Program-made: the position numbers and the translations under genes
Part shown: positions 13,024 to 64,000 of the stretch, one piece after another
Layout of the letters: each line of letters opens with the position of its first letter
Numbering within the stretch: the stretch's first letter is position 1
The notes under the pieces: generated by a model
Seen by the model: the letters and a program-made list of their open reading frames with translations, nothing else
The model's database searches: none
Told to the model about the DNA's origin: nothing
Source of the DNA: Bacilli bacterium
Lineage (GTDB): Bacteria; Bacillota_I; Bacilli_A; RFN20; CAG-826
Length of the DNA: 64,000 bases
Direction of reading: 5' to 3'
Assembly (NCBI GenBank): GCA_017477255.1
Contig: JAFUXB010000001.1
Location: 29,872-93,871 of the forward strand

Positions 13024-13473
13024 ATGATTAAAATTTATACTTCAAGTAGTTGTAGTAGTTGTAGAAAAGTAAAAAAATGGTTTGACGAACAAAAAATCCC
13101 TTATGTTGAACGAAATATTTTTGCTGGAGTCTTAAACCCTCAAGAATTAAAAGATATTTTATCAAAAACCGAAAACGGAACTGATGATATTATTTCAAAA
13201 AGAAGTAATGTAATTAAAAATGGAAATGTTGATATTGATTCAATGACTACTAATGAATTTATTGAATTTGTAAGACAAAATCCAAGTTGTTTAAAAAGAC
13301 CTATTATTATTGATGACCGTAAAATTCAAGTAGGTTATAACTCTGAAGAAATTAGATCATTTATTCCTCGTGCAAGAAGAATTGCTGAACAAAGTTGTAA
13401 ATGTTCTCAAACTTGTGAGAGCTGTCCAGAGATTAAAGAAGACTTTGAAAAATACCTTCAAACTTTGAAATAG
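13024..13473 (+). CDS. spx: Spx/ArsC-family redox regulator with Cys-rich C-terminal tail
   Basis: MIKIYTSSSCSSCRKVKKWFDEQKIPYVERNIF carries the N-terminal CxxC of the Spx family. 149 aa, with an extra tail CKCSQTCESCPE. Confidence 0.85.
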   Translation: MIKIYTSSSCSSCRKVKKWFDEQKIPYVERNIFAGVLNPQELKDILSKTENGTDDIISKRSNVIKNGNVDIDSMTTNEFIEFVRQNPSCLKRPIIIDDRKIQVGYNSEEIRSFIPRARRIAEQSCKCSQTCESCPEIKEDFEKYLQTLK

Positions 13474-13552
13474 CTTAGATTTGCAGGGTTTTTGTTAAAA
13501 AGCCTGCAAAACCCCATTATTTTTAAAAATAGTTGAGTTCTGCAGGCTTTTT
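13473..13552. repeat. Three copies of the dispersed TGCAGG(G/C)TTTTT motif, two of them as an inverted pair
   Basis: TTGCAGGGTTTTT lies at 13481-13493. Its near-complement AAAAAGCCTGCAA lies at 13497-13509. The 28-mer AAAAATAGTTGAGTTCTGCAGGCTTTTT lies at 13525-13552. Confidence 0.9.
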
Positions 13553-13685
13553 GATTAGAAATAAAAGGTTTTTATTAATTAAAAAGTCACTTATTTAAAA
13601 TTATTTAAATAAAAAGTTTGTAAAAAATTTTTTCTGCTTTAAACTTTTTATATAACTTAAATTTAAAAATTTAAGGAGGTAGTTT

Positions 13686-16600
13686 ATGAAAAAGAAAACT
13701 GGCTTACTTATTGCGTGTGCTGGTTTAATGCTCACTGCATTAGGTTTTAGCGCACCAAATAAGTCAAATGAGAAACTAGAACTCAATCGTACAGTTATAG
13801 TTGAACTCAAAGAAAAAGAAGGTCTTAGTAAAGAAGAAGTTCAAAGATTATTTGAGATTCAATTAAGAAATAAAATTGGTTACAACTACAAAATCGAATC
13901 AAGACTTTCAGATTTAGCTAATTTTGAAATCGTTAAAATTCCTGGTGATTTTAAAGAATATGTTGATGAAATTAGTTTAGTTGAAAATTCATATGATGAG
14001 CATTTCTATGAAAAATGTGAAACAGTTTTAGCTGATGGAGAAGGTTATGATCCATTAACTCCTAGAGCTGATATGCCAAACGCATTCAACCCAAAACAAA
14101 CTGAAGTTGCGCCAGATAAAAACTATTCAAGAGAAGATATGGTTATTCCAGTAAGTGGAAATGAAGGAAAAGGAACACTTATTGCTGTCTTAGATAATTC
14201 ATTCCAAGTTGGTCATGAAGCTTTTGTGGATATGGATGTTGAAAATGTTAAATTTACTCAAGCTCAAATGAATACTTTAACTTCACAAGTTGGTTTTATT
14301 GGGAAAGGTAATACTTATATTAACAATAAGATTCCTTATGTTTATGACTATGCAAATAATGACGATAACGTCTTAAATACTTCAGAAAATCATGGTATGC
14401 ACGTTTCAACTATTGCATGTGCTAATGGAACTTATCAAGGAATTTCACCAAAAGCTCAACTTGCTTTTATGAAAGTTTTCCCAGATAGTGGAAGTGGAGC
14501 AAGTGATTCAACTGTTTTAAAAGCTTTAAATGACTGCGTTAAATTAAAAGTCGATGTTATTAATATGTCACTTGGTTCGCCACTTGATTCAGGTTGGGGT
14601 GATAGAAACACAGAAGATGGCAAAGTTGAAGATACATTTACAGCTGCTTTTAGAGCAATTCAATATTTAAATGAAAGTGGCGTTCAACTTGCAATTTCTG
14701 CAGGTAATGAAGGTAAAGCTTCATTTATTAAAGATAAAGAACAAACTAACGATTTTGGAAATTATTACGATAATGCCTTAGATAATCCAGATAATGGTAT
14801 CTTAGGAAGTTATGCTTTAAGTGCTTATGGAACAATCGTTGCTAGTGGAAGACTTACTGGCGATACTTCAATTCCAGATTCATCAGCTTATACTAGAGTT
14901 GTAAGTTCATTCTCAAGTGAAGGTTATACTTATGACTTATTATTAAATCCAGATATTATTACTCCAGGAACTAACATTTGGGGTGGAAATACTGTAAATA
15001 AACCAGAAGAAGATCAACCATATGTTTATATGAATGGTACTTCAATGGCAGCTCCTAACTATGCTGGTGCTGTTGCTAACTTATTAAGTAATGGCGAATA
15101 CACTACAGAAGAAGAAAGAGCCGCTTATCAAAAAACTTTAACTCAAAGATTACAATCAACTGCAAAAATTTTAACTCAAGCAAATGGTGCATTCTATACA
15201 CCTAAAAAACAAGGAGCAGGTCAGCCAAATGTAACTGCAGCTATTAATAGTGATGTTTACTTTAAAGGTGAACGTGATAAAGCTAAAGTTGAATTAAAAA
15301 ATAACGATGACATCAAACAAGGTAATATTAAATTTAGTATTGCTGCAGTTAATGAAGGTAGTGCTGAAAAGAAATTTAATGCTAAATTATATGTTCAATC
15401 TCCAGCTTTACTTTATGATGATGATAATAACCCAAGAGCTTATTCATTAAATGATAAATTACTTGAAACTTACGAATTTGACGTAACTTTACCAGTTGGA
15501 ACAAGTGATGTTTCAGTAAATTACACAATTAGTAATGAAGCCAAAGAATATTTAAGCGCATTTAAAACTGGTTGCTTCTTAGAAGGCTACTTAGTTTTAT
15601 CTCCAGAAGATGAAAATGATTATCAAGTAAGTGTTCCATATATGGGATATTATGGTGATTATGGACAATCCCCAGCTGTTGAAGAATTTGATTTTGCAGC
15701 TGATGAAGGATATGTTGGTGCATCAAGCTTTATTAATAGTGCATATAGTGCAAAAATGAAGAAAGTTAATGTTGATTTTACTTCAACAATTGTCACTTCA
15801 GGTGCTCCTATCTCATCAAGTAATATCGATAAGAGCGTTAGTGGTGATACTAACTTAAAAGCTGTTGGTAATGAAGTTGTATTAAATGATGATGGAAATC
15901 CTGTATTTGGTATTGATGGCTTAAGCAATAATGTTTATGCTCAAATGATCATTTTAAGAACTTGTAAAGGTAGTAAATATCAATTAATTGACAGTGATAA
16001 TAAAGTTGTTTATGAAAACTTTATTGAATCAAAATGTGAAAATAAACAATATCAAAGCACAGGCGGCGGACTTTATAAATCATTAATTTTAACTGAAGAA
16101 GGTTCAGGAAACTTATATTGTAGTAAAGCCTTTGCCTCATTACAAATTAGAAATAGTGAAGGACTAATTTATCCTGTTGGAAATTACACATTAAGATTTA
16201 GTTTCGATACAATCTATGGATCACATATTGAAAAAGATTATCCAGTCGAAATTAGAGATGGCGTTGCATCATCACCAGTATTTGGTAAAAAATCATATAC
16301 TGATGCTGAAAAAACTGCATTTAGAATTGAACTTGAAAATAATATTGAAAAAGCAATTGTTAATGACAGTGAAGTAGCTATTTCAGAAGATGCTAATGGT
16401 AAATATTTATCAATTGATAAATCAATTTATGGTAAGAAAACTAAAGTATTAGTCGAATTAATCAATGATTTAGGACTTAGCACAAAACAATTATTCAATA
16501 TTGATGAAATTGAAAAAGGTTGGTCAGTTGAACATGCTGATTTAAAAGCTACTTATAGTGTTAAATTTACAGAAAGTAGAAGTGAAGTTATTAATAAACA

Positions 16601-16997
16601 CTTTACTTATGATTTCAAAGCAGAAGTTTTAGATGCTAGAAAGAACCCTGTATCTTTAGGTAAATTTGTTGTAAATACAATTTTACCAGCAGATAGTGAT
16701 TTAACTGAATATGAAATCTTTGAAAAACAATTTAATGGACAACTTGTTAAATTAACAGAAAGTTCATATAAATTAGATGGAAATGCATTAAGTGTTACAA
16801 CTCAAACTGGTATTATTCAATTAACAATTAAACAAGATAAATCAAAAGTTGAACCAGAACCAACACCAGTTGAACCTGATGCACCAGCTAAAAAAGGATG
16901 CGGAGGAGAAGTTGCTGTTACTTCAATTAGTTTAGTAAGTTTAGCAGCTATTGCTCTTGCTACTGTCTTATTAAAAAAGAAAAAGAATGAAAATTAG
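13686..16997 (+). CDS. Cell-surface subtilisin-like (S8) serine protease, lactocepin/C5a-peptidase-like, C-terminal TM anchor
   Basis: Catalytic triad contexts VLDNSF (D), ENHGMHVSTIA (H), NGTSMAAPNYAG (S). N-terminal signal/anchor is present. The C-terminus is GCGGEVAVTSISLVSLAAIALATVLLKKKKNEN, a hydrophobic helix plus basic tail with no LPXTG. Confidence 0.88.
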   Translation: MKKKTGLLIACAGLMLTALGFSAPNKSNEKLELNRTVIVELKEKEGLSKEEVQRLFEIQLRNKIGYNYKIESRLSDLANFEIVKIPGDFKEYVDEISLVENSYDEHFYEKCETVLADGEGYDPLTPRADMPNAFNPKQTEVAPDKNYSREDMVIPVSGNEGKGTLIAVLDNSFQVGHEAFVDMDVENVKFTQAQMNTLTSQVGFIGKGNTYINNKIPYVYDYANNDDNVLNTSENHGMHVSTIACANGTYQGISPKAQLAFMKVFPDSGSGASDSTVLKALNDCVKLKVDVINMSLGSPLDSGWGDRNTEDGKVEDTFTAAFRAIQYLNESGVQLAISAGNEGKASFIKDKEQTNDFGNYYDNALDNPDNGILGSYALSAYGTIVASGRLTGDTSIPDSSAYTRVVSSFSSEGYTYDLLLNPDIITPGTNIWGGNTVNKPEEDQPYVYMNGTSMAAPNYAGAVANLLSNGEYTTEEERAAYQKTLTQRLQSTAKILTQANGAFYTPKKQGAGQPNVTAAINSDVYFKGERDKAKVELKNNDDIKQGNIKFSIAAVNEGSAEKKFNAKLYVQSPALLYDDDNNPRAYSLNDKLLETYEFDVTLPVGTSDVSVNYTISNEAKEYLSAFKTGCFLEGYLVLSPEDENDYQVSVPYMGYYGDYGQSPAVEEFDFAADEGYVGASSFINSAYSAKMKKVNVDFTSTIVTSGAPISSSNIDKSVSGDTNLKAVGNEVVLNDDGNPVFGIDGLSNNVYAQMIILRTCKGSKYQLIDSDNKVVYENFIESKCENKQYQSTGGGLYKSLILTEEGSGNLYCSKAFASLQIRNSEGLIYPVGNYTLRFSFDTIYGSHIEKDYPVEIRDGVASSPVFGKKSYTDAEKTAFRIELENNIEKAIVNDSEVAISEDANGKYLSIDKSIYGKKTKVLVELINDLGLSTKQLFNIDEIEKGWSVEHADLKATYSVKFTESRSEVINKHFTYDFKAEVLDARKNPVSLGKFVVNTILPADSDLTEYEIFEKQFNGQLVKLTESSYKLDGNALSVTTQTGIIQLTIKQDKSKVEPEPTPVEPDAPAKKGCGGEVAVTSISLVSLAAIALATVLLKKKKNEN

Positions 16998-17403
16998 AGA
17001 ATTATTTGAAGAAAGTAGTTTATTTAGGAAGGTCTGCCTTTGTGTAGGCCTTCTTTTAGCTGCTGTTCCTTTATTCCTTTTATATTATTTTTTAGTAAAT
17101 AAAACTGTTGCGGGTTTAGCTGATATAGGATTTGGAATATTTGCAGTTTATTTTGGAGTAGGAACATTTATTATTCTTTCTAATTTTGGTGCATTTGATT
17201 TAATTGGCTATGCATCAGCAAATTTAGTAAGAAATATAGGAAAAAAGGATCCTGTAAGAAAATATAATGATGTAATTGAATATAGAGATTCTAAAGCTGA
17301 AAGAAGAAGAAAAAACAAATTTTTGTTTATTCCTTGGTATATTGCATCTTTAATATATTTAATTATAGCAATTATTTGCACAGTAATTTTTAATAATCTT
17401 TGA
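16987..17403 (+). CDS. Small integral membrane protein (DUF3899-like)
   Basis: 138 aa, 3-4 predicted TM helices, central GAFDLIGYASANLVRN...KYNDVIEYR segment. Overlaps the protease stop by 11 nt. The family call is from memory only. Confidence 0.5.
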   Translation: MKIRELFEESSLFRKVCLCVGLLLAAVPLFLLYYFLVNKTVAGLADIGFGIFAVYFGVGTFIILSNFGAFDLIGYASANLVRNIGKKDPVRKYNDVIEYRDSKAERRRKNKFLFIPWYIASLIYLIIAIICTVIFNNL

Positions 17404-17552
17404 TTATATCGTAATAATTTAAATATTATTAAAATATTATTAAGAAAAAAAATAATTTTAAAACTCATATATTATAGAAAATATAATTTTGATAATAACT
17501 TAACTGCAATTATTGCAGTGTAAGTAATTTTTTTATTTTTAGGAGGTAATTT

Positions 17553-20498
17553 ATGAAAAAACTTTCAATTAGTAAAGTTGCTGGTCTTGTTACCGGCTTT
17601 GCTGTTACAGCCCTTCTTGTTGGTGTAACAACAGCTTGTAAACCAAAATCCAAACCAGTAGTACCTGAAGATGATCCACACAAATATTTAGATGCTTCAT
17701 TTAAATTATCAATTGGTGATTCAACAGGTGTTTTAGCTGTTGGTGAAACATTACAAACTCAAATTGTTGATGTTAAGGGCGGTATCGTTGCTGATGATTT
17801 AGAATTAGCTTTCTCAACTAGTGATCCTGAAGTTTTATCAGTTAGTGCTTCAGGTTTAGTTACTGCAAAACAACCAGGTTTTGCTGATGTTATCGCTATT
17901 GATGAAGAAAGTGGTGCTGTTGACAGTGTCCAAATTCAAGTCAAAGGTGTTCCAGCTCAAGGTGCTAAATCCTATTCAGGTGCTGGATATCAAACTCAAG
18001 CCGAAATTTTAGGCGTTCTTGAAAAATATGCTCAAGATACTTATTTAAGTGGTTTACCATTAGCAGGTGATGGTTCATTTGTTATGTATCATCCACGTGT
18101 TCAAAAAGGTACTGAAAACTATGTTGAAGGATATGGATTTGGTATTTTACAACATGGTGATTTAACTGCTGATCTTGAAGGTGAAACAAACGCTGCTTAT
18201 AAGAGATATTTACACTCATATACTTCAGAAGATCCACAAAACTTAAATGAATGGGCAGCAAATAGTAGCTCAGTCAGTGATCTTGCAAGTTATGTCGTCA
18301 GTGGTTATTTCGGATCAAAATTAAATGAAGATAAAACAGGTGAAGAATATTATCCAGTCTTATCAAATGATGAAGATTTCGAAGCATTGAACGCAAGTGA
18401 AGATGCTGAACCAAAAGCAACTAGATTTAAATTACACGTTAAAACTGGTGAACAAGCTAAATATTCAACATTATCAAAGAATGCTAAATTTAGTAAATAT
18501 AATGGAAGAGAAGTAGCTCTTGAAGACTATTTAACTCCATTCAAATTAATGCTCACTAAGAAATTCAACTTATACCGTGGTAACGAAATGGTCGCAGAAA
18601 CTTATGCAAGACCAATCAAAGGTGCCGCTGAATATTACAACCAAACTGGTGAAGGAATGAATGAAGAATTATTCAATAGCACAGTTGGTGTTAAAGTTGG
18701 AGAAGATGAAAAAGGTGGATATATTGAATTTGAATTCGCTAAAGCATTAAAAGTTTCCGATGCTAAAGTTAACTTATCAAGTTCATTATGGCAACCAATT
18801 CCAATGGAATTCATCAATGATTTAGGTGGAGATCCAAACTTATATGCCTCATTTAGTGAAGATAAATCATTAAGCCCAGTTGATACAACATTATCATTAT
18901 CAGCTTATACACTTGAATATTATGAAAGTGGAAAATTAATTACATTTAAACGTAACCCAGAATGGTTTGAAAAAACTGAAGATACTGGTATGTATAAGAT
19001 TCCTGGTGTCCATATTGCAATCTTAGAAGCTGCAAAACAAGACACTGAAGCTGCTTGGAGAGAATTTATGGCAAATAAACTCGATTCCATCACTATTCCA
19101 GGAACTCACTTAAATGAATATAAAAACGACCCAAGAACAGTTGAAATTCCAGAAACTACAACTTGGAAATTAAATATCAATGCAACAACTGAAGAATTAT
19201 GGGAAGAATTATTTGGTAAAAACGGATCAGTTTATCAAACAACTGATGAAAAAGATTACTGGGATGTCAAACCAGTCATGCAAAATATTCACTTCCTTGA
19301 TGGTTTATATTATTCATTAAACAGAATTGAATTTGCAGGCGCTCAAAACATGACTGCATCTCAAAACTACTTATCAAGAGCTTACTATTTCACTTATAAA
19401 GATGCTAAGACAGGTGAAACTGTTAAAGTAACTTATGATGATATGGATGCTCACCAAAAAGCAATTGCTAACAGATATCCAGAAACATTCGGATTTAACT
19501 TAACTGCAGCAAAAGCTTACTTCAAACTTGCTATTCAAGAATTACTCGCAGATGGATCTTATGAATTAGGAACTATTGAAAATCCAAGTAAGATTGAAAT
19601 TAGTGCAAAATGGATGTCACAAACATCATTAACTAGAATGGGCGAACCATTAACTAAATATATGATGGATGCATTCAACAGTGTTGATCCACGTATTCAA
19701 CTCGTAATCAACAACTCAGCTTGCTCAACAAGTGATGAAATGTATGAAGCACTCGAACGTGGTCAATTTGATATCGGTATGGGAGCTATCACAGGTATGC
19801 AAGCTTGGCCATTAGACTTCTTCCAAGTCTTATGTTCAGATAACAGATCTGGCTTCTGCTTAAACTGGGGTCCAGATACTAGTGTCAATGATGGAAAGAT
19901 CTTCTATGATGGAAATACTTGGTCATTTGACTGCTTATGGGAAGCTGGAACTACAAGTACAGTCGCAGTTGCTGGTGAAACAGGATTTGCATTCAATGCA
20001 GCATTAAGTGCTAGAGAATTCCCAAATGATGGTGCTGAAGAACCAACTTACACTGGTGATGTTGTCTACACTGCTTTATATGAAGCAATTGCAGCACAAG
20101 GAGTCAGCTGGAAGATTACAGGCTTATACCTTGAAGATTATGCAACTAATAGTGGAATTGGAACTGGTATGTTTGGTATCAACTTAGCAACTGGTGCATT
20201 AACTGGTGTCTATAAAGATCAAAATCTTGGTGTAGACCATCTCTATGAATTAGATGAAGAAGCTGGTAGTGTTCAATTTACAGTTCCAAAAGAATTGAAC
20301 GATGAAGCATTCAGATTTACAAAAATTTACGCTGAAGTAAATGAAGTTACTGAAGATCAAGTCATCGCTGCAGGTTATGAAAAATATAACTACAGATTCG
20401 ATGTCTACTTCGAAATCGAAATCGAATTTGAAGGAAGTAAGTTCACTACATCATTCTTACCATTCGATATCTATGCATTCAATTACTTCGCTGCATAA
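17553..20498 (+). CDS. oppA: Peptide/oligopeptide ABC substrate-binding lipoprotein (family 5, OppA-like) with N-terminal Ig-like (Big_2-type) domain
   Basis: Lipobox VTTAC at aa 25-29. Big_2-like segment GETLQTQIV...FSTSDPEVLSVSASGLVTAKQPGFADVIA. SBP_bac_5-like body. Sits upstream of oppBCDF. Confidence 0.8.
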   Translation: MKKLSISKVAGLVTGFAVTALLVGVTTACKPKSKPVVPEDDPHKYLDASFKLSIGDSTGVLAVGETLQTQIVDVKGGIVADDLELAFSTSDPEVLSVSASGLVTAKQPGFADVIAIDEESGAVDSVQIQVKGVPAQGAKSYSGAGYQTQAEILGVLEKYAQDTYLSGLPLAGDGSFVMYHPRVQKGTENYVEGYGFGILQHGDLTADLEGETNAAYKRYLHSYTSEDPQNLNEWAANSSSVSDLASYVVSGYFGSKLNEDKTGEEYYPVLSNDEDFEALNASEDAEPKATRFKLHVKTGEQAKYSTLSKNAKFSKYNGREVALEDYLTPFKLMLTKKFNLYRGNEMVAETYARPIKGAAEYYNQTGEGMNEELFNSTVGVKVGEDEKGGYIEFEFAKALKVSDAKVNLSSSLWQPIPMEFINDLGGDPNLYASFSEDKSLSPVDTTLSLSAYTLEYYESGKLITFKRNPEWFEKTEDTGMYKIPGVHIAILEAAKQDTEAAWREFMANKLDSITIPGTHLNEYKNDPRTVEIPETTTWKLNINATTEELWEELFGKNGSVYQTTDEKDYWDVKPVMQNIHFLDGLYYSLNRIEFAGAQNMTASQNYLSRAYYFTYKDAKTGETVKVTYDDMDAHQKAIANRYPETFGFNLTAAKAYFKLAIQELLADGSYELGTIENPSKIEISAKWMSQTSLTRMGEPLTKYMMDAFNSVDPRIQLVINNSACSTSDEMYEALERGQFDIGMGAITGMQAWPLDFFQVLCSDNRSGFCLNWGPDTSVNDGKIFYDGNTWSFDCLWEAGTTSTVAVAGETGFAFNAALSAREFPNDGAEEPTYTGDVVYTALYEAIAAQGVSWKITGLYLEDYATNSGIGTGMFGINLATGALTGVYKDQNLGVDHLYELDEEAGSVQFTVPKELNDEAFRFTKIYAEVNEVTEDQVIAAGYEKYNYRFDVYFEIEIEFEGSKFTTSFLPFDIYAFNYFAA

Positions 20499-21725: not shown

Positions 21726-21726
21726 T

Positions 21727-23700: not shown

Positions 23701-23701
23701 T

Positions 23702-27083: not shown

Positions 27084-27100
27084 TGTGCCTTTTTTCTTTT
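27072..27100 (+). terminator. Rho-independent terminator of the opp operon
   Basis: AAGGCACA-ataa-TGTGCCTT stem with the oppF stop codon in the loop, followed by TTTTCTTTT. Confidence 0.75.
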
Positions 27101-27104: not shown

Positions 27105-27160
27105 AAAAAATAGTTGAGATTTGCAAGGTTATTTTTTAAATTGCAGGGTTTTTAAAAGAA
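27105..27160 (+). repeat. Composite intergenic repeat element with two direct motif units (paralog of 30637-30697)
   Basis: AAAAAATAGTTGAGATTTGCAAGGTTATTTTTTAAATTGCAGGGTTTTTAAAAGAA aligns almost base for base with the element after yhaM. Confidence 0.9.
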
Positions 27161-28516: not shown

Positions 28517-29691
28517 GAATAGGTATTTTTACTGATACTTTCTATCCTGAAATTAATGGCGTTGCTGTTAGTTGCCTTTCTTTATATGAAACTTTAACTA
28601 AAAACGGACATGAAGTTTATGTTTTTTGTAGTGGTAAGAAGACTGAATATGATCCAGAAAAAAGAATTTATCGAATTCATGGATTATATTTAAAACGAAT
28701 TTATGGATATAGATTAGTTTTACCAGGTCATCCTAAAATTTATCGATTTATTAAATCTTTAAACTTAGATATTATTCATGTAAATACAGAAGAAATGTGT
28801 TCAATTATTGGAATGAGAGCTGCAAAACTTTTTAAAATTCCATCAGTTTATACATATCATACAAAACTTGAAGATTACACTTATTACATTACTAAAGGAA
28901 ATGAAAAATTTGATAAAGTTTCTAAAAATATTTTAAGAAGAGTTTTAAGAAAATATTGTAAATCCGTTGATGAAATTGTAGTTCCTAGCCAAGATACAAA
29001 AGATTATATTCAAACGCATGGTGTTAAAAAATATGTAAATGTAATTCCAACTGGATTTGATTTTTTGCGTTTTAAAAGTGTTGAAAAAGATAGTGAAAAG
29101 TGCCTAGAACTTAAAAAAACCCTGCAGATCTCAGATAAAAATTTTGTTTTATTAGTTTTAGGACGTATTGCAAGCGAAAAAAGTATAGATAAAGTTGTTA
29201 ATTTATTTACTAGCTATGTTAAAGAAAAAAACAATACAGATATGCGCTTATTAATTGTTGGTGACGGCCCTTATTTAAATGCAATTAAGAAAGTAGTAGA
29301 AATTAATAAAATAGAAAAACAAGTTATTTTTACAGGTAAAGTTCCTTCAAATGAAACTCAATATTATTATGCAATTTCAGATGTATTTTTAAATGCATCA
29401 ACAACGGAAACGCAAGGTTTAACTTATATGGAAGCAATGTGTTCTAAATTAATTTTACTTGTAAAAAGAGCCAAAAACTTAGAAGGCGTTATTAGAGATG
29501 GTAAAAACGGTTTTATTTTTGATTCTCAAGAAGACTTCTTAGAAAAATTAGATAAAATTTATAATTTAAGTGGTAAAGAAAAAGAAAGAATAATATTAAA
29601 TTCAATTTATTCTATGAATAAATATTCTGCAGAAGCATTTTATAATAATATTATGGTAGTATATGAAAGAGCAAAGAAAGATAGATATTAA
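28513..29691 (+). CDS. GT4 glycosyltransferase, 1,2-diacylglycerol 3-alpha-glucosyltransferase (MGS)-like glycolipid synthase
   Basis: MRIGIFTDTFYPEINGVAVS N-terminus and the E-x7-E region (TETQGLTYMEAM) are typical of MGS-type GT4 enzymes. Confidence 0.8.
   Translation: MRIGIFTDTFYPEINGVAVSCLSLYETLTKNGHEVYVFCSGKKTEYDPEKRIYRIHGLYLKRIYGYRLVLPGHPKIYRFIKSLNLDIIHVNTEEMCSIIGMRAAKLFKIPSVYTYHTKLEDYTYYITKGNEKFDKVSKNILRRVLRKYCKSVDEIVVPSQDTKDYIQTHGVKKYVNVIPTGFDFLRFKSVEKDSEKCLELKKTLQISDKNFVLLVLGRIASEKSIDKVVNLFTSYVKEKNNTDMRLLIVGDGPYLNAIKKVVEINKIEKQVIFTGKVPSNETQYYYAISDVFLNASTTETQGLTYMEAMCSKLILLVKRAKNLEGVIRDGKNGFIFDSQEDFLEKLDKIYNLSGKEKERIILNSIYSMNKYSAEAFYNNIMVVYERAKKDRY
29113..29133 (-). repeat. Dispersed motif copy (reverse orientation) inside the GT4 gene
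   Basis: The + strand reads AAAAAAACCCTGCAGATCTCA. The reverse complement is TGAGATCTGCAGGGTTTTTTT. Read as KKTLQIS. Confidence 0.85.
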
Positions 29692-30636: not shown

Positions 30637-30697
30637 AAAAATAGTTGAGTTCTGCAGGGTTTTTGATTTAAACTGCAGGGTTTTTAAAAGAAAAAAG
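30637..30697 (+). repeat. Composite intergenic repeat element with two direct motif units (paralog of 27105-27160)
   Basis: AAAAATAGTTGAGTTCTGCAGGGTTTTTGATTTAAACTGCAGGGTTTTTAAAAGAAAAAA begins 5 nt after the yhaM stop. Confidence 0.9.
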
Positions 30698-36058: not shown

Positions 36059-36831
36059 TGGATAAAAAAGAGATTTTTGAAATATTTGAAAATAAAGATT
36101 TTGACAAGTCTTCTTTTAAAAATTCTCAAATAATTATTAAGGAAAACTCAGTTGTCGAACTTAATTTAAAGCCAACTGAAGAAGAAATTTGTGTGGATTT
36201 AGAAGTGGAAAAGTACGCAAGTTTTAAGCTTGTTATTTTAAATGAAAAAAGCCTTAAAAATTTCAAAATCACTGCAAATCTCCACTCAAATTCTGAATTT
36301 TACATTTATTTTGCAGACTTTTCACTTAATAATTTAGATGTGGAAACTACTATAAATTTAGTTGGGGATTATGCCTCTTCTAAAGTAGAATTTGCATCAC
36401 TAGTTAAAAATGAAGATAAGAAAAAATTTGTAGTTAATTTTGAACATATTGGTAAAAATACTTCATCAGATTTTAAAGGATTTGGTGTTGTTCAAAATAA
36501 AGGAAACTTAGTTGCTAGAGGTGACTCTCACATCACTAAACCAAGTGTAAAATCAAGTGCATCTCAACTTATAAAAGTTATTTTATTTGATAAAGAAAGT
36601 AAAAGTACAGGTTATCCAATTTTACGAATTGATTGTGATGATATTAAAGCAAATCATGGTTGTGCAATTGGAACTGTAAATCCTGATCATATCTTCTATT
36701 TATTAAGTAGAGGATTAAATTTAAATGAAGCTCGTAAATTAATTACTGCTGGTTATCTTTTACCAATTGCAGAAAATTTTAAAGAAAATGAAAAGAATAC
36801 AATCGAGGAAATTGTTGAAAGAAGCATTTAA
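36058..36831 (+). CDS. sufD: Fe-S cluster assembly protein SufD (short form)
   Basis: C-terminal SufB/D beta-helix motif ...DIKANHGCAIGTVNPDHIFYLLSRGLNLNEARKLI. Sits between sufC and sufS. Confidence 0.85.
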   Translation: MDKKEIFEIFENKDFDKSSFKNSQIIIKENSVVELNLKPTEEEICVDLEVEKYASFKLVILNEKSLKNFKITANLHSNSEFYIYFADFSLNNLDVETTINLVGDYASSKVEFASLVKNEDKKKFVVNFEHIGKNTSSDFKGFGVVQNKGNLVARGDSHITKPSVKSSASQLIKVILFDKESKSTGYPILRIDCDDIKANHGCAIGTVNPDHIFYLLSRGLNLNEARKLITAGYLLPIAENFKENEKNTIEEIVERSI

Positions 36832-36832: not shown

Positions 36833-38062
36833 ATGTACGATGTAAATAAAATTAGAAAAGATTTTCCTATGTTAGATGGCACTAAATTAAATCAAGGCCA
36901 TCCTTTAGTTTACCTTGATAATGCTGCAACAACATTTAAACCAAAATGCGTAATTGAAGCATGTAATCGATATTATGAAGAAGAATGTGCTAACTCACAT
37001 CGTGGAGATTATGATCTTGCATATAAAGTTGATGTAACTGTTGACGAAGTTAGAAATAAAGTCGCTAAATTTATAAATGCTAAAAAAGAAGAAGTTGTAT
37101 TTACTAGTGGAACTTCAATGTCTATAAATCTTGTTGCTTCAGGATATGGTGTAAAACATCTTAAAAAAGGCGATGAAATCTTATTAACTGAAGCTGAACA
37201 TGCTAGTAATGTTCTTCCTTGGTTTAAAGTAAAAGAAATGACAGGATGTTCAATTAATTACATTCCTTTAGATAAAGAAGGAAGATTAACAGTTGAAAAT
37301 GTTAAAAAAACAATTAATAAAAATACAAAGATTGTAGCAATTGCCCAAATAACTAATGTTCTTGGTTATTTATGTGATGTTAAAGAAATAGCTAAAGTTT
37401 GCCATGAATATGGAGCAATATTAGTTCTTGATGGAGCTCAATCAATACCTCATGTACCTGTTGATGTTAAAGATTTAGATTGTGATTTCTTAAGTTTCAG
37501 TGGCCATAAAATTTATGGACCAACTGGAATTGGCGTCTTATATGGAAAGTTTGAACTTTTACAAGATACAGATCCATTTATGAGTGGTGGAGGAAACAAT
37601 GCTAGATTTGATATGTGTGGCAATGTTTCATTCTTACAACCACCTGCAAAATTTGAAGCTGGTACATTAAATCTTGCTGGTATTTATGGACTTGGAGCAG
37701 CCATTGATTATGTTAATAAAATTGGCATGGAAGAGATTCATAAATATGAATTAGAATTAAGAAATTATGCCGTTTCTAAACTAAAAACCCTGCAGAACCT
37801 TATTATTTATAACGAATTTGCAGAAGGTGGCATAATTACAATTAATGTAAAAGACGTATTTGCTCAAGATGAAGCAAGCTATTTAAATAGCAAAGGAATT
37901 TGTGTAAGAAGCGGTGAACATTGTGCAAAAATATTACATGATTTTTTAAAGACAATGGCTACTGTACGAATAAGTTTTGGCTTATATAATACAAAAGAAG
38001 AAATTGATGTATTGTATGAAACTTTAAAAAATGGAGGTGACTTTTTAGATGCGTATTTCTGA
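36833..38062 (+). CDS. sufS: Cysteine desulfurase SufS (class V aminotransferase)
   Basis: YLDNAATTFKP, PLP-Lys context SFSGHKIYGPTGIGVL, active-site loop VRSGEHCA. ATG 36833 lies 1 nt after the sufD stop. Confidence 0.95.
   Translation: MYDVNKIRKDFPMLDGTKLNQGHPLVYLDNAATTFKPKCVIEACNRYYEEECANSHRGDYDLAYKVDVTVDEVRNKVAKFINAKKEEVVFTSGTSMSINLVASGYGVKHLKKGDEILLTEAEHASNVLPWFKVKEMTGCSINYIPLDKEGRLTVENVKKTINKNTKIVAIAQITNVLGYLCDVKEIAKVCHEYGAILVLDGAQSIPHVPVDVKDLDCDFLSFSGHKIYGPTGIGVLYGKFELLQDTDPFMSGGGNNARFDMCGNVSFLQPPAKFEAGTLNLAGIYGLGAAIDYVNKIGMEEIHKYELELRNYAVSKLKTLQNLIIYNEFAEGGIITINVKDVFAQDEASYLNSKGICVRSGEHCAKILHDFLKTMATVRISFGLYNTKEEIDVLYETLKNGGDFLDAYF
37782..37801 (-). repeat. Dispersed motif copy (reverse) inside sufS, a 20-nt exact match to 40282-40301
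   Basis: TAAAAACCCTGCAGAACCTT, read as KTLQNL. Confidence 0.9.
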
Positions 38063-39882: not shown

Positions 39883-41762
39883 AAAACTACGATGTAATTG
39901 TCGTGGGTGGTGGGCACGCTGGAGTTGAGGCGTGTCTTTCTTGTGCTAAAAGAGGTTTTAGTACTCTTTTAATTACTCTAAATAAAAAAATGATTTCAAA
40001 TATGCCTTGTAATCCATCTATTGGAGGAAGTGCAAAAGGAATTGTTGTTAGAGAAATCGATGCCTTAGGTGGCTATATGGGAAAAGCTGCCGATGCTGAG
40101 TATTTACAAATGAAAATGTTAAATACTAAAAAGGGTCCAGCAGTACAATGTTTAAGAGCTCAAGCTGATAAAAAAAGATATCCACATAATATTCAAAATC
40201 ATTTATATGAAACAGAAAATTTGGATGTTTTAGAAGATCAGGTTGTCGATATTTTGCATGATGAAAATAAGGTTTTAGGAGTAAAAACCCTGCAGAACCT
40301 TGATATTTTTTCAAAAACTGTAATTTTAGCAACTGGAACTTACATGGATAGCGAGATATTAGTTGGACACTCAAAAGTAAGTGGTGGACCTGATGGAGAA
40401 AAGCCTGCAATAGGAATAAGCGATTCTTTAAGAAGAATGGGAATTAAACTTTATAGACTTAAAACAGGAACCCCACAAAGAATAGCTCGTGAATCAATAG
40501 ATTTTTCAAAAACTTTAATTCAATATGGTAATGTTGAAGATGAAGGATTTTCTTATGAAGACGATAAATTCATTCCTTTAGAAGATCAAATTCCATGTTG
40601 GTTAATTTATACAACACCTGAAACTCACAAAATTATTAAAGACAATTTATTAGAAAGCGCCATGTATAGTGGACTTGTTAAAGGTGTTGGTCCAAGATAT
40701 TGTCCATCAATTGAAGATAAAATAGTAAGATTTTCTGAAAAACCACGTCATCAACTCTTTTTAGAACCTGAAAGTTATGATTCAAATTCAATTTATTTAC
40801 AAGGTTTTTCAACTTCAATGCCAAAAGAAGTACAAGACAAGATGGTTCATTCATTACCAGGATTAGAAAATGCTGTTATTTTAAAATATGCATATGCAAT
40901 TGAATACGATGCAATCGAAACTTCTGAATATGATATTTCATTAATGATCAAGAAATGGCCAGGTTTATTTATTGCTGGTCAAATTTGTGGAACTAGTGGT
41001 TATGAAGAAGCTGCAGGACTTGGAATTATGGCTGGTATTAATGCTGGGAATTATATTTTAGGTCTTGAACCATTTGTCTTAAAACGTGATGAAGCTTATA
41101 TTGGAGTAATGATTGATGATTTAATTAATAAAGGTACAAAAGAGCCTTATAGACTATTATCTTCTAGAGCAGAATTTAGATTACTTTTAAGACATGATAA
41201 TGCTGATTTAAGGCTTACTGAATATGGTCATAAATATGGTTTAATTTCTGAGGAAAGATACGCAAAATTTGTCAAAAAGACTGCAGAACTCAACTCAATT
41301 TTAAATTTTTTAGAAAATACGAGTGTTGGGAAGACTAGTAAAGTTAATGAATATCTTGTAAGTTTAGGCTATGAACCATTAGAAAACGGAGTCAAATTAA
41401 AAGATATTTTAAAAAGAAATAATGTTGAATTTTCAGAGCTTAAAAAATACATTAATTTACCAGAAAATTATGATTTAGAACCATATGGTGAAAAACAATT
41501 AAGTATCTTAGTGAAATATGAAGGCTACATTCAAAATGAAAAAGAAGAAGCTTTAAAAATGAGAAAGTTAGAAAGTATATTACTTCCTGATAATATCGAT
41601 TATTTAACTGTAGATGGACTTAGAATTGAAGCAAGACAAAAATTAAATATCGTAAAACCAAAAAATATTGGTCAAGCAAGTAGAATTAGCGGTGTAAATC
41701 CTGCAGATATTAACTCACTAATTTTACAACTTAAAAAAGGACTTGGAAGAAATGAAATTTAA
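39879..41762 (+). CDS. mnmG: tRNA uridine-5-carboxymethylaminomethyl synthesis enzyme MnmG (GidA)
   Basis: [18 protein letters not shown] motif, [22 protein letters not shown]-type motif ([15 protein letters not shown]). Its start overlaps the sufB stop (ATGA). Confidence 0.96.
40282..40301 (-). repeat. Dispersed motif copy (reverse) inside mnmG, a 20-nt exact match to 37782-37801
   Basis: TAAAAACCCTGCAGAACCTT, read as KTLQNL. Confidence 0.9.
40398..40410 (-). repeat. Short motif copy (reverse, GC variant) inside mnmG
   Basis: GAAAAGCCTGCAA has reverse complement TTGCAGGCTTTTC. This is 12/13 identical to the 13497-13509 copy. Confidence 0.55.
41274..41294 (-). repeat. Dispersed motif copy (reverse) inside mnmG
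   Basis: AAAAAGACTGCAGAACTCAAC has reverse complement GTTGAGTTCTGCAGTCTTTTT. This is 19/21 identical to the 30644-30664 unit. Read as KKTAELN. Confidence 0.8.
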
Positions 41763-42444
41763 GGATTATAAGCCATTTGAAGAGTTAAAACTTAGGAGCG
41801 ATATCTTCGACCAGTTCGAACTTTTTTATGATACATTAATTGAAGAAAATGCTAAATATAATTTAACTGCAATTACAGATAAAGATGAAGCAATCGAGAA
41901 ACATTTTTATGATTCAATAGTTCTTTTAAAAGAATTTGATTTAAGTAATTCAAATGTTATGGATATTGGATCAGGAGGTGGATTTCCAGCAATTCCTTTA
42001 GCTATATGTTGTCCATCAGCTAATTTTTATTTAGTAGAATCAAGTGCTAAAAAATGTAAGTTTTTAAACTTAGTAAAAGAAAAATTAAATCTTAAAAATG
42101 TAACTGTAATTTGCGGTAGAGTTGAAGAAAACCCTGCAAATCTCAGGTCTTTTTTTGATTTTTGCACTTCAAGAGCTGTTACACAACTTAGAATTTTACT
42201 TGAATTAAGTATTCCATATTTAAAGGTTAACGGCGAACTTTTAGCTCATAAAGGCATTAATTATCAAATTGAAATTAATGATTCAAAATTATCTTTTGAA
42301 AATCTAAATTCAAAAGTGGTTAAAGAATTTGAATATAATTTAGAAAATTGTAAACAAACTAGATATATTTTAGATATTAAAAAACTAAAAGAAACAGATA
42401 AAAAGTATCCACGTAAATATTCACAGATCGTTTCTAATAAGTAG
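41752..42444 (+). CDS. rsmG: 16S rRNA (guanine527-N7)-methyltransferase RsmG (GidB)
   Basis: SAM motif MDIGSGGGFPAIPLAI, ...TSRAV.... The first ATG is at 41752 (the ORF-track start at 41743 is TTG). Overlaps the mnmG end. Confidence 0.93.
   Translation: MKFKDYKPFEELKLRSDIFDQFELFYDTLIEENAKYNLTAITDKDEAIEKHFYDSIVLLKEFDLSNSNVMDIGSGGGFPAIPLAICCPSANFYLVESSAKKCKFLNLVKEKLNLKNVTVICGRVEENPANLRSFFDFCTSRAVTQLRILLELSIPYLKVNGELLAHKGINYQIEINDSKLSFENLNSKVVKEFEYNLENCKQTRYILDIKKLKETDKKYPRKYSQIVSNK
42127..42147 (-). repeat. Dispersed motif copy (reverse) inside rsmG
   Basis: GAAAACCCTGCAAATCTCAGG has reverse complement CCTGAGATTTGCAGGGTTTTC. Read as ENPANLR, a different frame from the sufS/mnmG copies. Confidence 0.8.
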
Positions 42445-47431: not shown

Positions 47432-48050
47432 GCAAGAATTAATCGTTAATTATTTAGATGAAATATTACCTAATGCTGGTTGTGAATTAAATTACACAAC
47501 TGATTATTCTTTTTTAATTGCTGTAATGCTTAGCGCACAATGTACTGATAAAAAAGTAAATAAAGTTACAGCAAAACTTTTTAAAATTTATCCAGATCTT
47601 GAATCTTTAGCAAATGCAAAATATAAAGACATATATGAACTTGTTAAAGAATTAGGGCTAGCAAAAACTAAAGCTCAAAACGTAATTGATATAGCAAAAA
47701 CTTTAATAGATAAGTTCGATTCTCGCGTTCCAATCAATAAATTTGAACTTATGAGCTTACCTGGAGTTGGTAATAAAACTGCAAATGTGGTTCATGTTGA
47801 ATTATTTAATATTCCTGAATTTCCTGTTGATACTCATGTTGCTCGAATTTCTAAAAGACTTCAAATTGCTTTAGAAGAAGATGATGTAAAAACAATTGAA
47901 CATAAATTAAAAGAATTGTTTCCAAAAGAAAAATGGATTAAACTCCATCATCAATTTATCCATTTTGGAAGATATTATTGTAAAGCTATTTCACCTAAAT
48001 GCGAAGGCTGTAAACTAGCTCAAATTTGTCAAAAACCCTGCAAATCCTAG
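47412..48050 (+). CDS. nth: Endonuclease III
   Basis: HhH-GPD (LPGVGNKTANVV), catalytic-Lys region, and C-terminal 4Fe-4S motif CKAISPKCEGCKLAQIC. Confidence 0.94.
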   Translation: METKLNKQELIVNYLDEILPNAGCELNYTTDYSFLIAVMLSAQCTDKKVNKVTAKLFKIYPDLESLANAKYKDIYELVKELGLAKTKAQNVIDIAKTLIDKFDSRVPINKFELMSLPGVGNKTANVVHVELFNIPEFPVDTHVARISKRLQIALEEDDVKTIEHKLKELFPKEKWIKLHHQFIHFGRYYCKAISPKCEGCKLAQICQKPCKS

Positions 48051-48051
48051 C
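48031..48051 (-). repeat. Dispersed motif copy (reverse) covering the last 6 codons and stop codon of nth
   Basis: AAAAACCCTGCAAATCCTAGC has reverse complement GCTAGGATTTGCAGGGTTTTT. Read as QKPCKS*, a third frame. Confidence 0.85.
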
Positions 48052-48057
48052 TCTTTT

Positions 48058-48573
48058 TTATAAAACGCTTAAATAATCAACGTAAATTTTTAAATTAGAA
48101 GGTACTAAAAAACCTTCTTTTTTAAAATAAGTTAAAGGAATAGAAGATCTATTTTCATTATCTAAAAATGCTAATAATTTATCTCCTTTAAGAAGATAAA
48201 TTTCATCTAAAGCACTAAATTCAACAAGTAAAAAAGAAATTCCACCAAAATTTAATACATTTTTAATATGTTCAATTTGATGATCTTCAATATTTTTTAA
48301 AGGCAAAGAAGTTTTAGAATGAGTCGATTTTGCTTCAAAATCGATGTATTTTCCATTAAAAACTCCATTATAATCTGTTGTTGATTTACTTTCAAAAGCA
48401 GCTTTTGTAATAAGCTGAGTTTCATTATCTATTGAAATAATTTTAATTGGAGTAGGTTTTTTATAGATCAGAGCAATATTATTTTCTTTATAATACTCAT
48501 TTGCTTTATTTATTTTTGATTCAAATGAAAGTCCTTTATTTTTATCTTTAATATAAGAAGGGAATTTTATCAT
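48058..48573 (-). CDS. recU: Holliday junction resolvase RecU
   Basis: KGLSFESKINKANEYYKENNIALIYKKPTPIKI... and ...DF.G...GKYIDFEAKST are RecU motifs. 171 aa. Confidence 0.88.
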   Translation of the reverse strand: MIKFPSYIKDKNKGLSFESKINKANEYYKENNIALIYKKPTPIKIISIDNETQLITKAAFESKSTTDYNGVFNGKYIDFEAKSTHSKTSLPLKNIEDHQIEHIKNVLNFGGISFLLVEFSALDEIYLLKGDKLLAFLDNENRSSIPLTYFKKEGFLVPSNLKIYVDYLSVL

Positions 48574-59762: not shown

Positions 59763-59769
59763 TTTTATT

Positions 59770-61770: not shown

Positions 61771-64000
61771 TCAATGCTTTTAATTTATCTAAATCATATT
61801 CAACTAATGAAATATTCACCAAATATAATTACAATTTTGAAGATAATAAATTTTATGGAATTTATGGAAAATCTGGATGTGGTAAAAGTACACTTTTAAA
61901 TTGCTTATCTGGTTTGGATTTAAACTTTGATGGAGATGTAATTGTTGATGGAATATCTCTAAAAGATTTAAATGATAAAGAAATAGAAGATTTCAGAATT
62001 AATAATTTTGGGTTTGTTTTCCAATCATTTAACTTATTTGAAGATCAAACTGTTGAGCAAAATATTGCATTATCATTAATAACAAATGAGAGTGATAAAG
62101 AGGTGATTTCTCAAAAAATAGTTGAGATTTGCAAGGTTTTAGATATAAATGACATTATTTATGAGCCTGTTAAAAGGCTGAGTGGTGGCGAAAAACAAAG
62201 GGTTGCTATAGCAAGAGCATTAATAAATAATCCTAAAGTTATTTTTTGCGATGAGCCTACTGGATCTTTAGATGAAGAAAATGCTAAACAAGTTTTTGAA
62301 ATCTTAAAAAGCTTAAGTAGTAACATATTAATAATTTGTGTTTCTCATGATATCGATTTATTAAAAGAATATTGCGATACAGTTATTGATTTTTATAAAA
62401 AGCAAGAAGTTAAAGTTAGAAATAAGGCAAGTGAAAAAGAAATTAAACTTATGAATATCCATGATAAAGGAGAAGGTAAGTTAAAGTTTAAAACTATTGT
62501 TAATTTATGTAAAAGTTCTTTTAAAAACAATAGAGTTAGATACCTAATTTCTAGTGCAATATTTTCTGTATGTTTGATTTGTTTGGGTCTTTCTGTTTAT
62601 TTAGGCCAAAGTTTATCTTTGAGTATTAATAAAGCATTCTCAAATATTATTAGCGATAATACCTTAATATTAAGGAAAAAAGAACTTAATAATGAAGTTG
62701 AAAAGAAGTCAGTTTCGAAAGATATTATCTATAAAATTAAACAAGAATATAACGATGATATCGAATATTTTGGTTGTAAGTATTTAAATAATTTTAACGA
62801 TATGTTTATTAATTATAATAACGTATTTCTTTCTCATAATAATGTTTTAAAAGGTATTGATCTATTTAATGCACAACATTTCGAAGAGTTTGAGTATAGG
62901 CCTAAAGAAGCAATTGGTATTGATTTAAAAAATGATGAAATAGTTGTTTCTTTAGACTATTCTTCTATGGATAAACTGTGCAAAATCTTACAGATTAAAA
63001 GGGATTACAGCAACTTAAATGAGTATTTAGAAAATAAGCAAACTGAGTTAATTTTTAAGGTAAGAAATAATGATCGGCAATATAATGATGAGCAATTATT
63101 TGTTTTAAAAAGAGTTTTTAAAGATATAAATAATAGAATCTACCATACAAATAATCTTTTTAATGAATATTTATTTGAAAATAGGATGAAACTCCCTTCA
63201 ATAATTGATTTAAATAATAATAAAGTAGCACCTTGGACTTTGAAGAAAGTTTATTATTTTAAAACTAAAAACTTTCAGACTAAGCTTATAAATAAAATTT
63301 CAAAAAACCCAGAATATAAAGATATAGTTTTTGATTCAGATCGAAATGAATATTCTCCTTTTACTTGTAAATTAGGTGAATATTGTAGAAGTAATAAAAT
63401 TTTTGCTTATGATTCGTCAAAATATGGGTTTGATTCTTCATTAATTTCTAATGTTCAAAAAATGAATTCAAAATTTAATAATTATTATTATTCATCTTTT
63501 GGTGGTTATTTTAATTATGGCATTGGAATGTTTGAGGGTTTTGCTAATAAAGTCTACTTTAGTTCTAATGTTGATGATTTAAATAAGCTTGAAAATAACT
63601 ATGAAAAAATAGAAATTAAAGATAAAGAATATTTGACTTTGCCAGAACAAATAGCACTAGGATATTATGAGAATTTAAGTCCATCTGATGTAAAGATTTC
63701 TACACTAAATTTTGAAAAAGAGTTGAGTTCTGAAGGGTTTTTGGTAAATGAAGTAGGTATTTCAAGTGCTTTAGCTACTAAAATTAAAATGAATATAAGT
63801 GAAAATAATTCAATTTATCTAATGCTAAATTATGATAAAAATTCGGATGGTATTTTCGAATACAATAAGTTTAAAAGGATTGAACTAAAAGTTTCTAAAA
63901 TTTACGATTCAAATAAATATTTCATAAAACAGAATAGTGATTTTAGTTTATCTCTTTTTAGAGATTTGTTCGAAGTTTCAGTTTTTAAATTAATACCAAA
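61767..64000 (+). CDS. Second fused ABC ATPase + large extracytoplasmic domain (MacB-like), 3' end outside window; not in the ORF track
   Basis: Its ATG overlaps the upstream stop (ATGA). Hand translation gives MINAFNLSKSYSTNE...GIYGKSGCGKSTLLN...LSGGEKQRVAIARAL...IFCDEPTGSLD, then a TM (ISSAIFSVCLICLGLSVYL). The frame is open to nt 64000. Confidence 0.85.
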   Translation, partial: MINAFNLSKSYSTNEIFTKYNYNFEDNKFYGIYGKSGCGKSTLLNCLSGLDLNFDGDVIVDGISLKDLNDKEIEDFRINNFGFVFQSFNLFEDQTVEQNIALSLITNESDKEVISQKIVEICKVLDINDIIYEPVKRLSGGEKQRVAIARALINNPKVIFCDEPTGSLDEENAKQVFEILKSLSSNILIICVSHDIDLLKEYCDTVIDFYKKQEVKVRNKASEKEIKLMNIHDKGEGKLKFKTIVNLCKSSFKNNRVRYLISSAIFSVCLICLGLSVYLGQSLSLSINKAFSNIISDNTLILRKKELNNEVEKKSVSKDIIYKIKQEYNDDIEYFGCKYLNNFNDMFINYNNVFLSHNNVLKGIDLFNAQHFEEFEYRPKEAIGIDLKNDEIVVSLDYSSMDKLCKILQIKRDYSNLNEYLENKQTELIFKVRNNDRQYNDEQLFVLKRVFKDINNRIYHTNNLFNEYLFENRMKLPSIIDLNNNKVAPWTLKKVYYFKTKNFQTKLINKISKNPEYKDIVFDSDRNEYSPFTCKLGEYCRSNKIFAYDSSKYGFDSSLISNVQKMNSKFNNYYYSSFGGYFNYGIGMFEGFANKVYFSSNVDDLNKLENNYEKIEIKDKEYLTLPEQIALGYYENLSPSDVKISTLNFEKELSSEGFLVNEVGISSALATKIKMNISENNSIYLMLNYDKNSDGIFEYNKFKRIELKVSKIYDSNKYFIKQNSDFSLSLFRDLFEVSVFKLIP
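62113..62138 (+). repeat. Dispersed motif copy (forward) inside the second ABC gene, a 26-nt exact match to intergenic 27105-27130
   Basis: AAAAAATAGTTGAGATTTGCAAGGTT, read as QKIVEICKV. Confidence 0.9.
63715..63742 (+). repeat. Dispersed motif copy (forward) inside the second ABC gene
   Basis: AAAAAGAGTTGAGTTCTGAAGGGTTTTT is 26/28 identical to 30637-30664. Read as EKELSSEGFL, a different frame from 62113. Confidence 0.8.

Follow-up and report, generated by a model that had tools for sequence, protein, structure and literature searches.

A 28-bp DNA word dispersed through the chromosomes of low-GC gut and rumen Bacilli: a candidate self-DNA tag resembling uptake sequences

A short DNA word recurs in the genes and spacers of a Bacilli bacterium (GenBank assembly GCA_017477255.1, contig JAFUXB010000001.1, positions 29,872 to 93,871), and the question is what keeps it there. 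The stretch analysed, called the window below, is 64,000 nt long, and coordinates count from its first letter; handles with the prefix L denote other loci used for comparison. An earlier note, made from the letters of the window, had described a dispersed signal at the nucleotide level, reminiscent of the uptake sequences of Pasteurellaceae and Neisseria. This descriptive part holds in all sequence-level tests that were run. Here we show that the motif is a double-stranded-DNA recognition word of 28 bp, and we propose, tentatively, that it may be an uptake-sequence-like tag of self-DNA.

A discrete word in genes and spacers

The dominant part of the word is a 12-bp core, TGCAGGGTTTTT. Eight exact copies lie in the window, on the forward strand at 13482, 27142, 30653 and 30674 and on the reverse strand at 29115, 37783, 40283 and 48031, where dinucleotide-preserving shuffles give 0.01; the earlier note had these positions right, as well as an expectation far below one. 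If up to one mismatch is allowed, the count rises to 12, where 0.69 would be expected; among these are 42127, 63731 and the two copies of a core variant, TGCAGGCTTTTT, at 13541 (+) and 13497 (-), again as reported. The aligned contexts give an asymmetric 28-nt consensus, AAAAATAGTTGAGWTYTGCAGGGTTTTT, followed by (GA), in which an A-run is followed by TAGTTGAG, by WTY, by the core TGCAGGG and by a T-run. There is no conservation outside the 28 bp, so the motif is sharply delimited.

A position weight matrix (PWM) of 36 columns, trained on 93 copies from the window and related DNA, finds 14 window sites at a score of at least 16 and 18 at a score of at least 12, against 0.03 and 0.13 in order-3 Markov simulations. 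All nine TGCAGGG heptamers of the window carry TTTT directly on their 3' side. This and the PWM excess mean that the motif is one discrete word and not a compositional quirk. The list of copies with one or two mismatches needed some correction: 27122, 41274, 42127, 62130 and 63731 stand, and the two-mismatch sites among them (27122, 41274 and 62130) are real family members because the upstream block is present. The site at 40398 lacks the upstream block, stays under the PWM threshold and is probably a chance match, and a degenerate copy in sufD, at 36265 (-), had been missed. The density in the window is about one copy per 4 kb, in spacers and coding genes, and three further copies follow within the next 7.8 kb of the contig. 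The copies are these, with PWM scores:

13466..13493, +: copy A (PWM 34.7); its own TAG (13471-13473) is the stop codon of an ArsC/Spx-like gene.
13497..13524, -: copy B, core TGCAGGCTTTTT (PWM 36.0), tail-to-tail with A and head-to-head with C.
13525..13552, +: copy C, the full extended form with core TGCAGGCTTTTT (PWM 42.6), one mismatch to the 23-mer.
27106..27153, +: tandem of an extended motif (core TGCAAGGTTATT) and a second exact core, core starts 20 nt apart, directly 3' of a hairpin terminator at 27069-27094.
29115..29142, -: coding copy, antisense, in a GT4 glycosyltransferase gene assigned by Pfam (PWM 28.8), read as KTLQISD.
30637..30685, +: tandem of a perfect extended motif and a second exact core 21 nt downstream (PWM 44.4), beginning 5 nt past the stop of an HD/OB (YhaM-like) gene.
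36265..36292, -: degenerate coding copy in sufD (PWM 26.2), with weak counterparts in L148 and L150.
37783..37810, -: coding copy within sufS (KTLQNLIIYNE), written with the rare codons ACC CTG CAG; four species and L045 have it at the orthologous site.
40283..40310, -: coding copy, mnmG site 1 (an 11-residue peptide), shared at the orthologous position by four species; the outgroup peptides here are unrelated and of almost the same length.
41274..41301, -: coding copy, mnmG site 2 (a 12-residue peptide; PWM 31.0), in the window's lineage only.
42127..42154, -: coding copy in rsmG (ENPANLR; PWM 33.2), in the window's lineage only.
48031..48058, -: copy at the convergent nth/recU junction (PWM 38.5); the recU stop lies directly at its 5' end, and the last Nth residues (QKPCKS-stop) are encoded by its core. 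A decayed counterpart lies at the same place in L148.
62114..62141, +: sense coding copy in a 920-aa ABC/FtsX gene (PWM 35.2), in the only open sense frame (IVEICKVL), core altered to TGCAAGGTTTTA.
63715..63742, +: sense coding copy in the same 920-aa ABC/FtsX gene (PWM 37.8), motif TAG changed to GAG, core TGAAGGGTTTTT.

The copy-bearing genes are ordinary housekeeping genes (GT4, sufD, sufS, mnmG, rsmG, nth/recU and ABC-FtsX); those guessed earlier, GT4, sufS, mnmG, rsmG, nth and an ABC gene, were identified correctly, and SufD, RecU and FtsX are added. Six of the 14 copies in the window (about 43%) are non-coding, while non-coding DNA makes up about 11%, an enrichment in spacers of about six-fold. 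By PWM, no copy lies in positions 1-13,400, which hold the S10-spc-alpha ribosomal-protein operons, just as had been observed before.

The tandem form consists of an extended motif followed by a bare second core, with core starts mostly 21 bp apart and 20 bp apart at 27122/27142. It occurs at 27106-27153 and 30637-30685 of the window and also at L122, L129, L133 and L134, and it is the most conserved stretch of an otherwise diverged orthologous spacer. Copies B and C (13497-13552) form the inverted pair that had been claimed behind a gene: a hairpin with arms of 28 nt and a U-run behind it, with z between -4.1 and -6.1. Two core-only palindromes were found in relatives. Taken singly, the unit shows no secondary structure (z = +1.1), and most copies are single, adjoining ordinary hairpin terminators and not lying inside them.

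The strands are used equally, 9 + and 9 - at a score of at least 12 and 7 + and 7 - at a score of at least 16, instead of the 6 forward and 10 reverse counted earlier. GC skew stays positive over nearly all of the window, which thus lies within one replichore. Chi and KOPS/SRS (FtsK-orienting polar sequences and SpoIIIE recognition sequences) are likewise over-represented words in genes that are maintained at the DNA level; however, they are 5-8 nt long with a strong leading-strand skew, and a polar motif of this type fails here because the word has 28 nt and stands 9:9 on a single replichore.

Other known sites were compared by eye and rejected. The TTGAGW block has no consistent -10 partner as a sigma-70 promoter would, there is no GG at -24 for a sigma-54 promoter, a site like that of integration host factor (IHF) shows two mismatches and Bacillota lack IHF, and a T7 class II terminator is only loosely similar. 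At the copies covered by a terminator and promoter scan, no promoter-like site was listed.

Two smaller observations concern the word itself. At L120 (10528-10555) and L147 (8544-8571) the motif is the entire, very short spacer: the upstream stop is fused to the A-run, the next start codon follows 0-4 nt past the T-run, and the AGGG of the core sits at Shine-Dalgarno distance. The PstI-type palindrome CTGCAG has 24 sites in the window, against about 4 by a rough base-composition estimate; 7 of the 24 lie within motif copies with Y = C, and the rest may reflect GCT-GCA Ala-Ala codon pairs.

Substitution in coding copies and restriction to one clade

The coding copies indicate how the word arises. 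MnmG residues 135-145 align without gaps to the Aquifex and E. coli MnmG structures, residues 466-476 align without gaps to E. coli MnmG in a variable region that is gapped against Aquifex, and the SufS peptide KTLQNLIIYNE aligns without gaps to B. subtilis SufS, a PDB homologue. The mnmG and sufS copies thus arose by substitution, and a mobile miniature element is ruled out for them; the colinearity of coding copies with homologues, stated in the earlier note, holds. The segments that they occupy are variable among homologues.

Across four species whose proteins are about 78% identical, third-codon-position identity is 0.85-0.88 at mnmG site 1 and the sufS site, against means of 0.57 and 0.61 over the full length of the two genes, and the two shared sites rank among the top ten-codon windows of either gene. 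A second peak in mnmG, at alignment columns 513-524, belongs to a conserved peptide and contains no motif copy. The motif clade writes the sufS site as AAA ACC CTG CAG AAC, while outgroups encode nearly the same peptide with the AT-rich AAA ACA TTG GAC AAT. ACC makes up 2.4% of Thr codons, CAG 3.2% of Gln codons and CTG 0.6% of Leu codons, with six CTG in 24 genes. The motif substitutions override codon preference. Third-position identity and codon override together bear out the claim that conservation is at the nucleotide and not the protein level, and with the gapless alignments and the rare codons, the suggested accumulation by substitution is substantiated as well.

Orthologous positions were compared between the window and six syntenic loci from relatives (L148-L153). 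The motif is present in L148, L149 and L150 and essentially absent from L151-L153. The motif-bearing loci, the window included, hold 5-6 copies per 22 kb each; their MnmG proteins are 76-81% identical, and these genomes group together by protein identity. L151 (MnmG 74%) has no copy, and L152 and L153 (MnmG 70-72%) have one terminator hairpin each (that of L152 with a score of 18). L153 also has a lone near-perfect extended copy at 18417-18444, aaaaatagttgagtttTGCGGGTTTTTT, with a score of 30, for which chance, a relic or imported DNA are possible.

Gain and decay can be followed in this set. Mnm​G site 1 and the sufS site are filled in all four motif-bearing genomes. Two further sites, mnmG site 2 and that in rsmG, are filled in the window's lineage alone, and many substitutions set them apart from the relatives. 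L149 and L150 keep perfect cores. In L148 (MnmG 79%) every core has decayed (GGGAGGG, TGAAGGG, AAAAGGG, AGCGAGG): no exact 12-mer occurs across its 21.9 kb, and the decayed orthologous copies span 6391-18225. This lineage may have lost the force that maintains the word.

Copies also occur in other metagenome-assembled genomes (MAGs) and in metagenome contigs. The exact motif 24-mer was found in 28 metagenome stretches, at least 17 of them distinct contigs of one metagenome, and these stretches carry additional degenerate copies. Contigs of genomes were also scanned with RGWTYTGCAGGGTTTTT, a loose pattern whose listed matches were mostly single chance ones. Among the matches listed, a handful of low-GC Bacilli MAGs were informative: SUG1359 and SRP141132_co3_321 hold the extended word with preferred variants, GGAGTTC and GAGATC, and RGIG4434, BRZ_QT bin77 and O80_L2 bin.52 hold the extended word too. 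The GAGWTT variant was likewise found in other MAGs or metagenome stretches. The MnmG proteins most similar to that of the window (76-80% identity) belong to uncultured bacteria of gut and rumen, deposited as "Mollicutes bacterium" or "Candidatus Onthovivens". The chromosomes that the motif marks are those of a single clade of gut and rumen Bacilli with small, low-GC genomes, relatives of Candidatus Onthovivens. The motif is thus a word under constraint at the DNA level, of substitutional origin, restricted to a clade and independent of strand and orientation. The motif family is undescribed; no account of it turned up in full-text searches of the literature, either with the 11-mer and the 12-mer or on uptake sequences of Bacillota and RFN20.

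A candidate self-DNA tag and its alternatives

This leaves a double-stranded DNA word maintained by a force on the DNA sequence itself, one that operates throughout the chromosome and in several species. Our best reading of these comparisons, held with less than even confidence, is that the motif is a candidate uptake-sequence-like tag of self-DNA. A surface DNA receptor of a transformation machinery would preferentially bind the 28-bp word, and motif-carrying fragments from the same or a close species would be taken up and recombined more often than motif-free ones. Over time, this transmission bias would fix mutations that improve the match wherever the protein or spacer tolerates them. Such a bias would produce substitutional copies in variable protein segments, the use of otherwise avoided codons and persistence at orthologous sites. 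It would also produce a pile-up in spacers beside stop codons and leave highly constrained genes free of copies. We favour biased uptake and recombination of self-DNA because it is the only well-described process with this footprint, as in the DNA uptake sequences (DUS) and uptake signal sequences (USS); what we infer is that the motif is linked to DNA uptake and that it has a receptor. A broader claim is somewhat more doubtful, namely that uncultured, genome-reduced gut Bacilli have the first self-DNA signal of the uptake type to be seen outside Proteobacteria. The signal would be bipartite, 28 bp long, with a tandem form and a putative receptor, and it would be in the course of gain in the window's lineage and of decay in that of L148.

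The likeness to known systems is considerable. The DUS of Neisseriaceae is the 12-mer AT-GCCGTCTGAA with its dialects, recognised by the minor pilin ComP. Like DUS, the motif has an over-represented 12-bp core, stands in both orientations in spacers and poorly conserved gene parts, avoids stop-codon frames, forms an inverted pair at a gene end and has related species with dialects of their own. The USS of Pasteurellaceae has a core AAGTGCGGT with AT-rich flanks, about 29 bp overall, and a predicted receptor, ComN. The motif shares with it a GC-rich core, helically phased A/T tracts, an asymmetric word of about 28-29 bp, the placement of about a third or more of the copies in the small non-coding fraction, and coding copies by substitution. 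Its sequence is unrelated to either, and it is less dense, about one per 4 kb against about one per kb for DUS. Its host, a low-GC member of Bacillota, belongs to a phylum unrelated to that of USS; against DUS it also differs in its 28 bp including A and T runs, its few copies in terminators and its direct tandem form. HIP1, the highly iterated palindrome GCGATCGC of cyanobacteria, has 8 bp and is linked to methylation sites. It is likewise a genome-wide word at the DNA level in genes and spacers, substitutional, conserved at orthologous sites and without a tie to mobile elements, but the motif is an asymmetric word of 28 bp and HIP1 an 8-bp palindrome. DNA uptake-enhancing sequences (DUES) accumulate in spacers and poorly conserved gene parts and avoid stop-codon frames; they form inverted pairs at gene ends, have dialects, and lie inside terminators in about half of cases (10.1101/2025.10.24.684340). 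The motif has all of the sequence-level properties of DUES that were compared, with the exception of the high share inside terminators.

Several points weigh against uptake. No comEC, comEA, comG or dprA was seen with crude patterns in about 0.3 Mb of scattered DNA from several genomes, made up of the window and motif-bearing loci (the patterns covered prepilin, T2SSE, MBL, DprA and ComFC), and when the 10 largest polytopic membrane proteins of the sampled loci were compared with Pfam, no com genes were found among them. CinA and RecA are the only competence-linked genes among those sought that the window contains. To our knowledge, transformation in Bacillota is sequence-independent. At about one copy per 4 kb, the density is below that of DUS and USS (about one per kb), and the information-rich part is 28 bp here against 9-12 bp in both. 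Cyanobacterial HIP1 is a substitutional genome-wide motif with no known role in uptake. The direct tandem second core, mostly 21 bp downstream, is without a counterpart in DUES and looks like the half-sites of a DNA-binding protein. Most copies lie beside hairpin terminators and not inside them, whereas about half of DUES lie inside. Finally, descriptions of sequence-specific uptake are limited to Neisseriaceae and Pasteurellaceae, two families of Proteobacteria (10.1101/2025.10.24.684340).

The strongest alternative, which we consider rather unlikely, is an array of binding sites for an abundant, sequence-specific cytoplasmic DNA-binding protein, with the sites kept by direct selection. Such a protein might organise the nucleoid, act in segregation or occlusion, read the sites as a self-marker to restrain a nuclease, or form a roadblock. 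The sharp boundary at 28 bp would suit such a protein. So would the second core, which mostly follows at 21 bp, that is, two helical turns, recurs in several genomes and forms the best-conserved part of its spacer, and so would the keeping of orthologous sites over long divergence. Known chromosomal sites such as parS and those of Noc and SlmA also occur within genes. However, the density in the window, extrapolated to about 1 Mb, would mean some 250 sites of more than 30 bits each, which is many for selection site by site; the motif is asymmetric, while most such proteins bind palindromes; the lineage-specific gains would need many coordinated substitutions; the decay of all L148 cores looks like the loss of a drive; and no candidate protein was identified.

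A transmission drive through another vehicle is improbable. Here a gene-transfer agent (GTA), a generalised transducing phage or a conjugative system would use the motif as its signal for packaging or transfer, which predicts the same genomic footprint of substitutional spread, clade restriction and lack of strand bias. Yet in a collection of 2.9 million viral contigs the motif is absent, bar two lone chance matches in higher-GC contigs, and BLAST against phage and plasmid records gave only matches at E of 1 or more, so the motif is absent there too. No phage or GTA genes were found near any copy in the window.

An element acting in RNA or transcription is hardly more promising and, in our view, quite improbable. 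It would be a factor-dependent terminator, a polar roadblock or a 3'-untranslated-region motif ending in a U-run, sense at gene ends and antisense in genes. Orientation was counted for 83 copies in 42 sequences (the window and 41 related loci), with genes called by a simple open-reading-frame rule. In this census, 20 copies have their 5' end at the stop codon of a co-oriented gene or no more than 13 nt from it, against 8 in the reverse arrangement; coding copies are mostly antisense (17, against 10 sense); and the motif ends in GGGTTTTT. All of this would agree with an RNA element. However, the sense strand of the motif has TAG and TGA stops in two of three frames, often with a TAA fused to the A-run, while the antisense strand is open in all three. 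Both the antisense excess and the stop-codon adjacency follow from the TAG and TGA that the word itself holds, and in the sense coding copies (62114, 63715) the reading frame is the single open one or the stop has been mutated away. In tandem spacers, 14 copies are co-oriented and 13 anti-oriented with transcription. The convergent HD/HIT spacer holds the motif on the + strand in the window and on the - strand in L149 and L150. One copy follows a canonical terminator and another precedes one, three genes carry sense copies inside them, the single unit is unstructured, and Rfam, at gathering and E-value thresholds, has no family at or near threshold for the motif, with weak matches far below. 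The terminator reading thus fails because there is no orientation preference and no structure, and because the copies are placed inconsistently with respect to real terminators.

Remnants of a mobile miniature repeat, an alternative raised in the earlier note, are very unlikely: repetitive extragenic palindromes and their mosaics (REP/BIME) with the associated RAYT transposase, miniature inverted-repeat elements (MITEs) and insertion-sequence ends would also be short, dispersed, often just past stop codons and in inverted pairs, and clustered spacer copies and the same word in several genomes fit them, but REP, BIME and MITE units are hairpins confined to spacers and spread by insertion, while the motif has no hairpin, half of its copies stand in-frame in genes, colinear with homologues and without indels, no similarity or longer repeat surrounds the 28 bp, no transposase was found in the window or the syntenic loci, and plasmid and phage collections lack it.

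Sequence-specific uptake is known in only two proteobacterial families and has hence been treated as an oddity. If the motif is indeed a self-DNA tag, it would be a third independent case, in Gram-positive-derived gut bacteria, which would mean that self-DNA tagging evolves repeatedly. It would offer a new receptor-DNA pair to study, explain the genome cohesion of uncultured, genome-reduced symbionts and provide a transformation handle for such organisms, with the 28-mer added to donor DNA. If it instead serves a cytoplasmic protein, it would mark an undescribed chromosome-wide system in this lineage. Either way, the motif is a ready taxonomic marker for binning the metagenome contigs of the clade. 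On the uptake reading, the contrast among lineages that maintain, gain or, like L148, lose it could identify the putative receptor by phylogenetic profiling.

Host genome and neighbouring genes

The window has about 29% G+C. It contains a class B RNase P RNA (49706-50034) and an FMN riboswitch (42479-42593), both well above Rfam gathering thresholds, and genes for DnaD, RecU, DivIVA, CinA-RecA, RNase Y and enlarged Opp proteins. This base composition, the RNAs and the gene set fit a genome-reduced member of Bacilli. The FMN riboswitch lies upstream of an ECF-type (energy-coupling factor) riboflavin transporter gene.

The region after rsmG differs among relatives. parA-parB (soj/spo0J) follow rsmG in L149 (12569-14135) and in L151-L153 and are not at that place in the window, L148 or L150, where the FMN riboswitch with ribU (window 42444-42600), or other genes, follow directly.

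On the - strand, window positions 31237-35044 encode two adjacent large proteins of 629 and 658 aa, with no Pfam family and one sub-threshold rotamase match; their position between the HIT gene and sufC is kept in seven of seven genomes compared. In a near-identical strain (L001:6662-8377), SufU and SufB are called short or split, at 112, 375 and 87 aa, while they have 149 and 465-469 aa in the window and L002; the short calls are probably frameshifts or assembly errors.

The OppC, OppD and OppF homologues at 21670-27083 of the window are unusually long (676, 670 and 461 aa) and have large inserts. OppF has a weak SHOCT-domain match, and the Opp set is reminiscent of Mollicutes-type systems.

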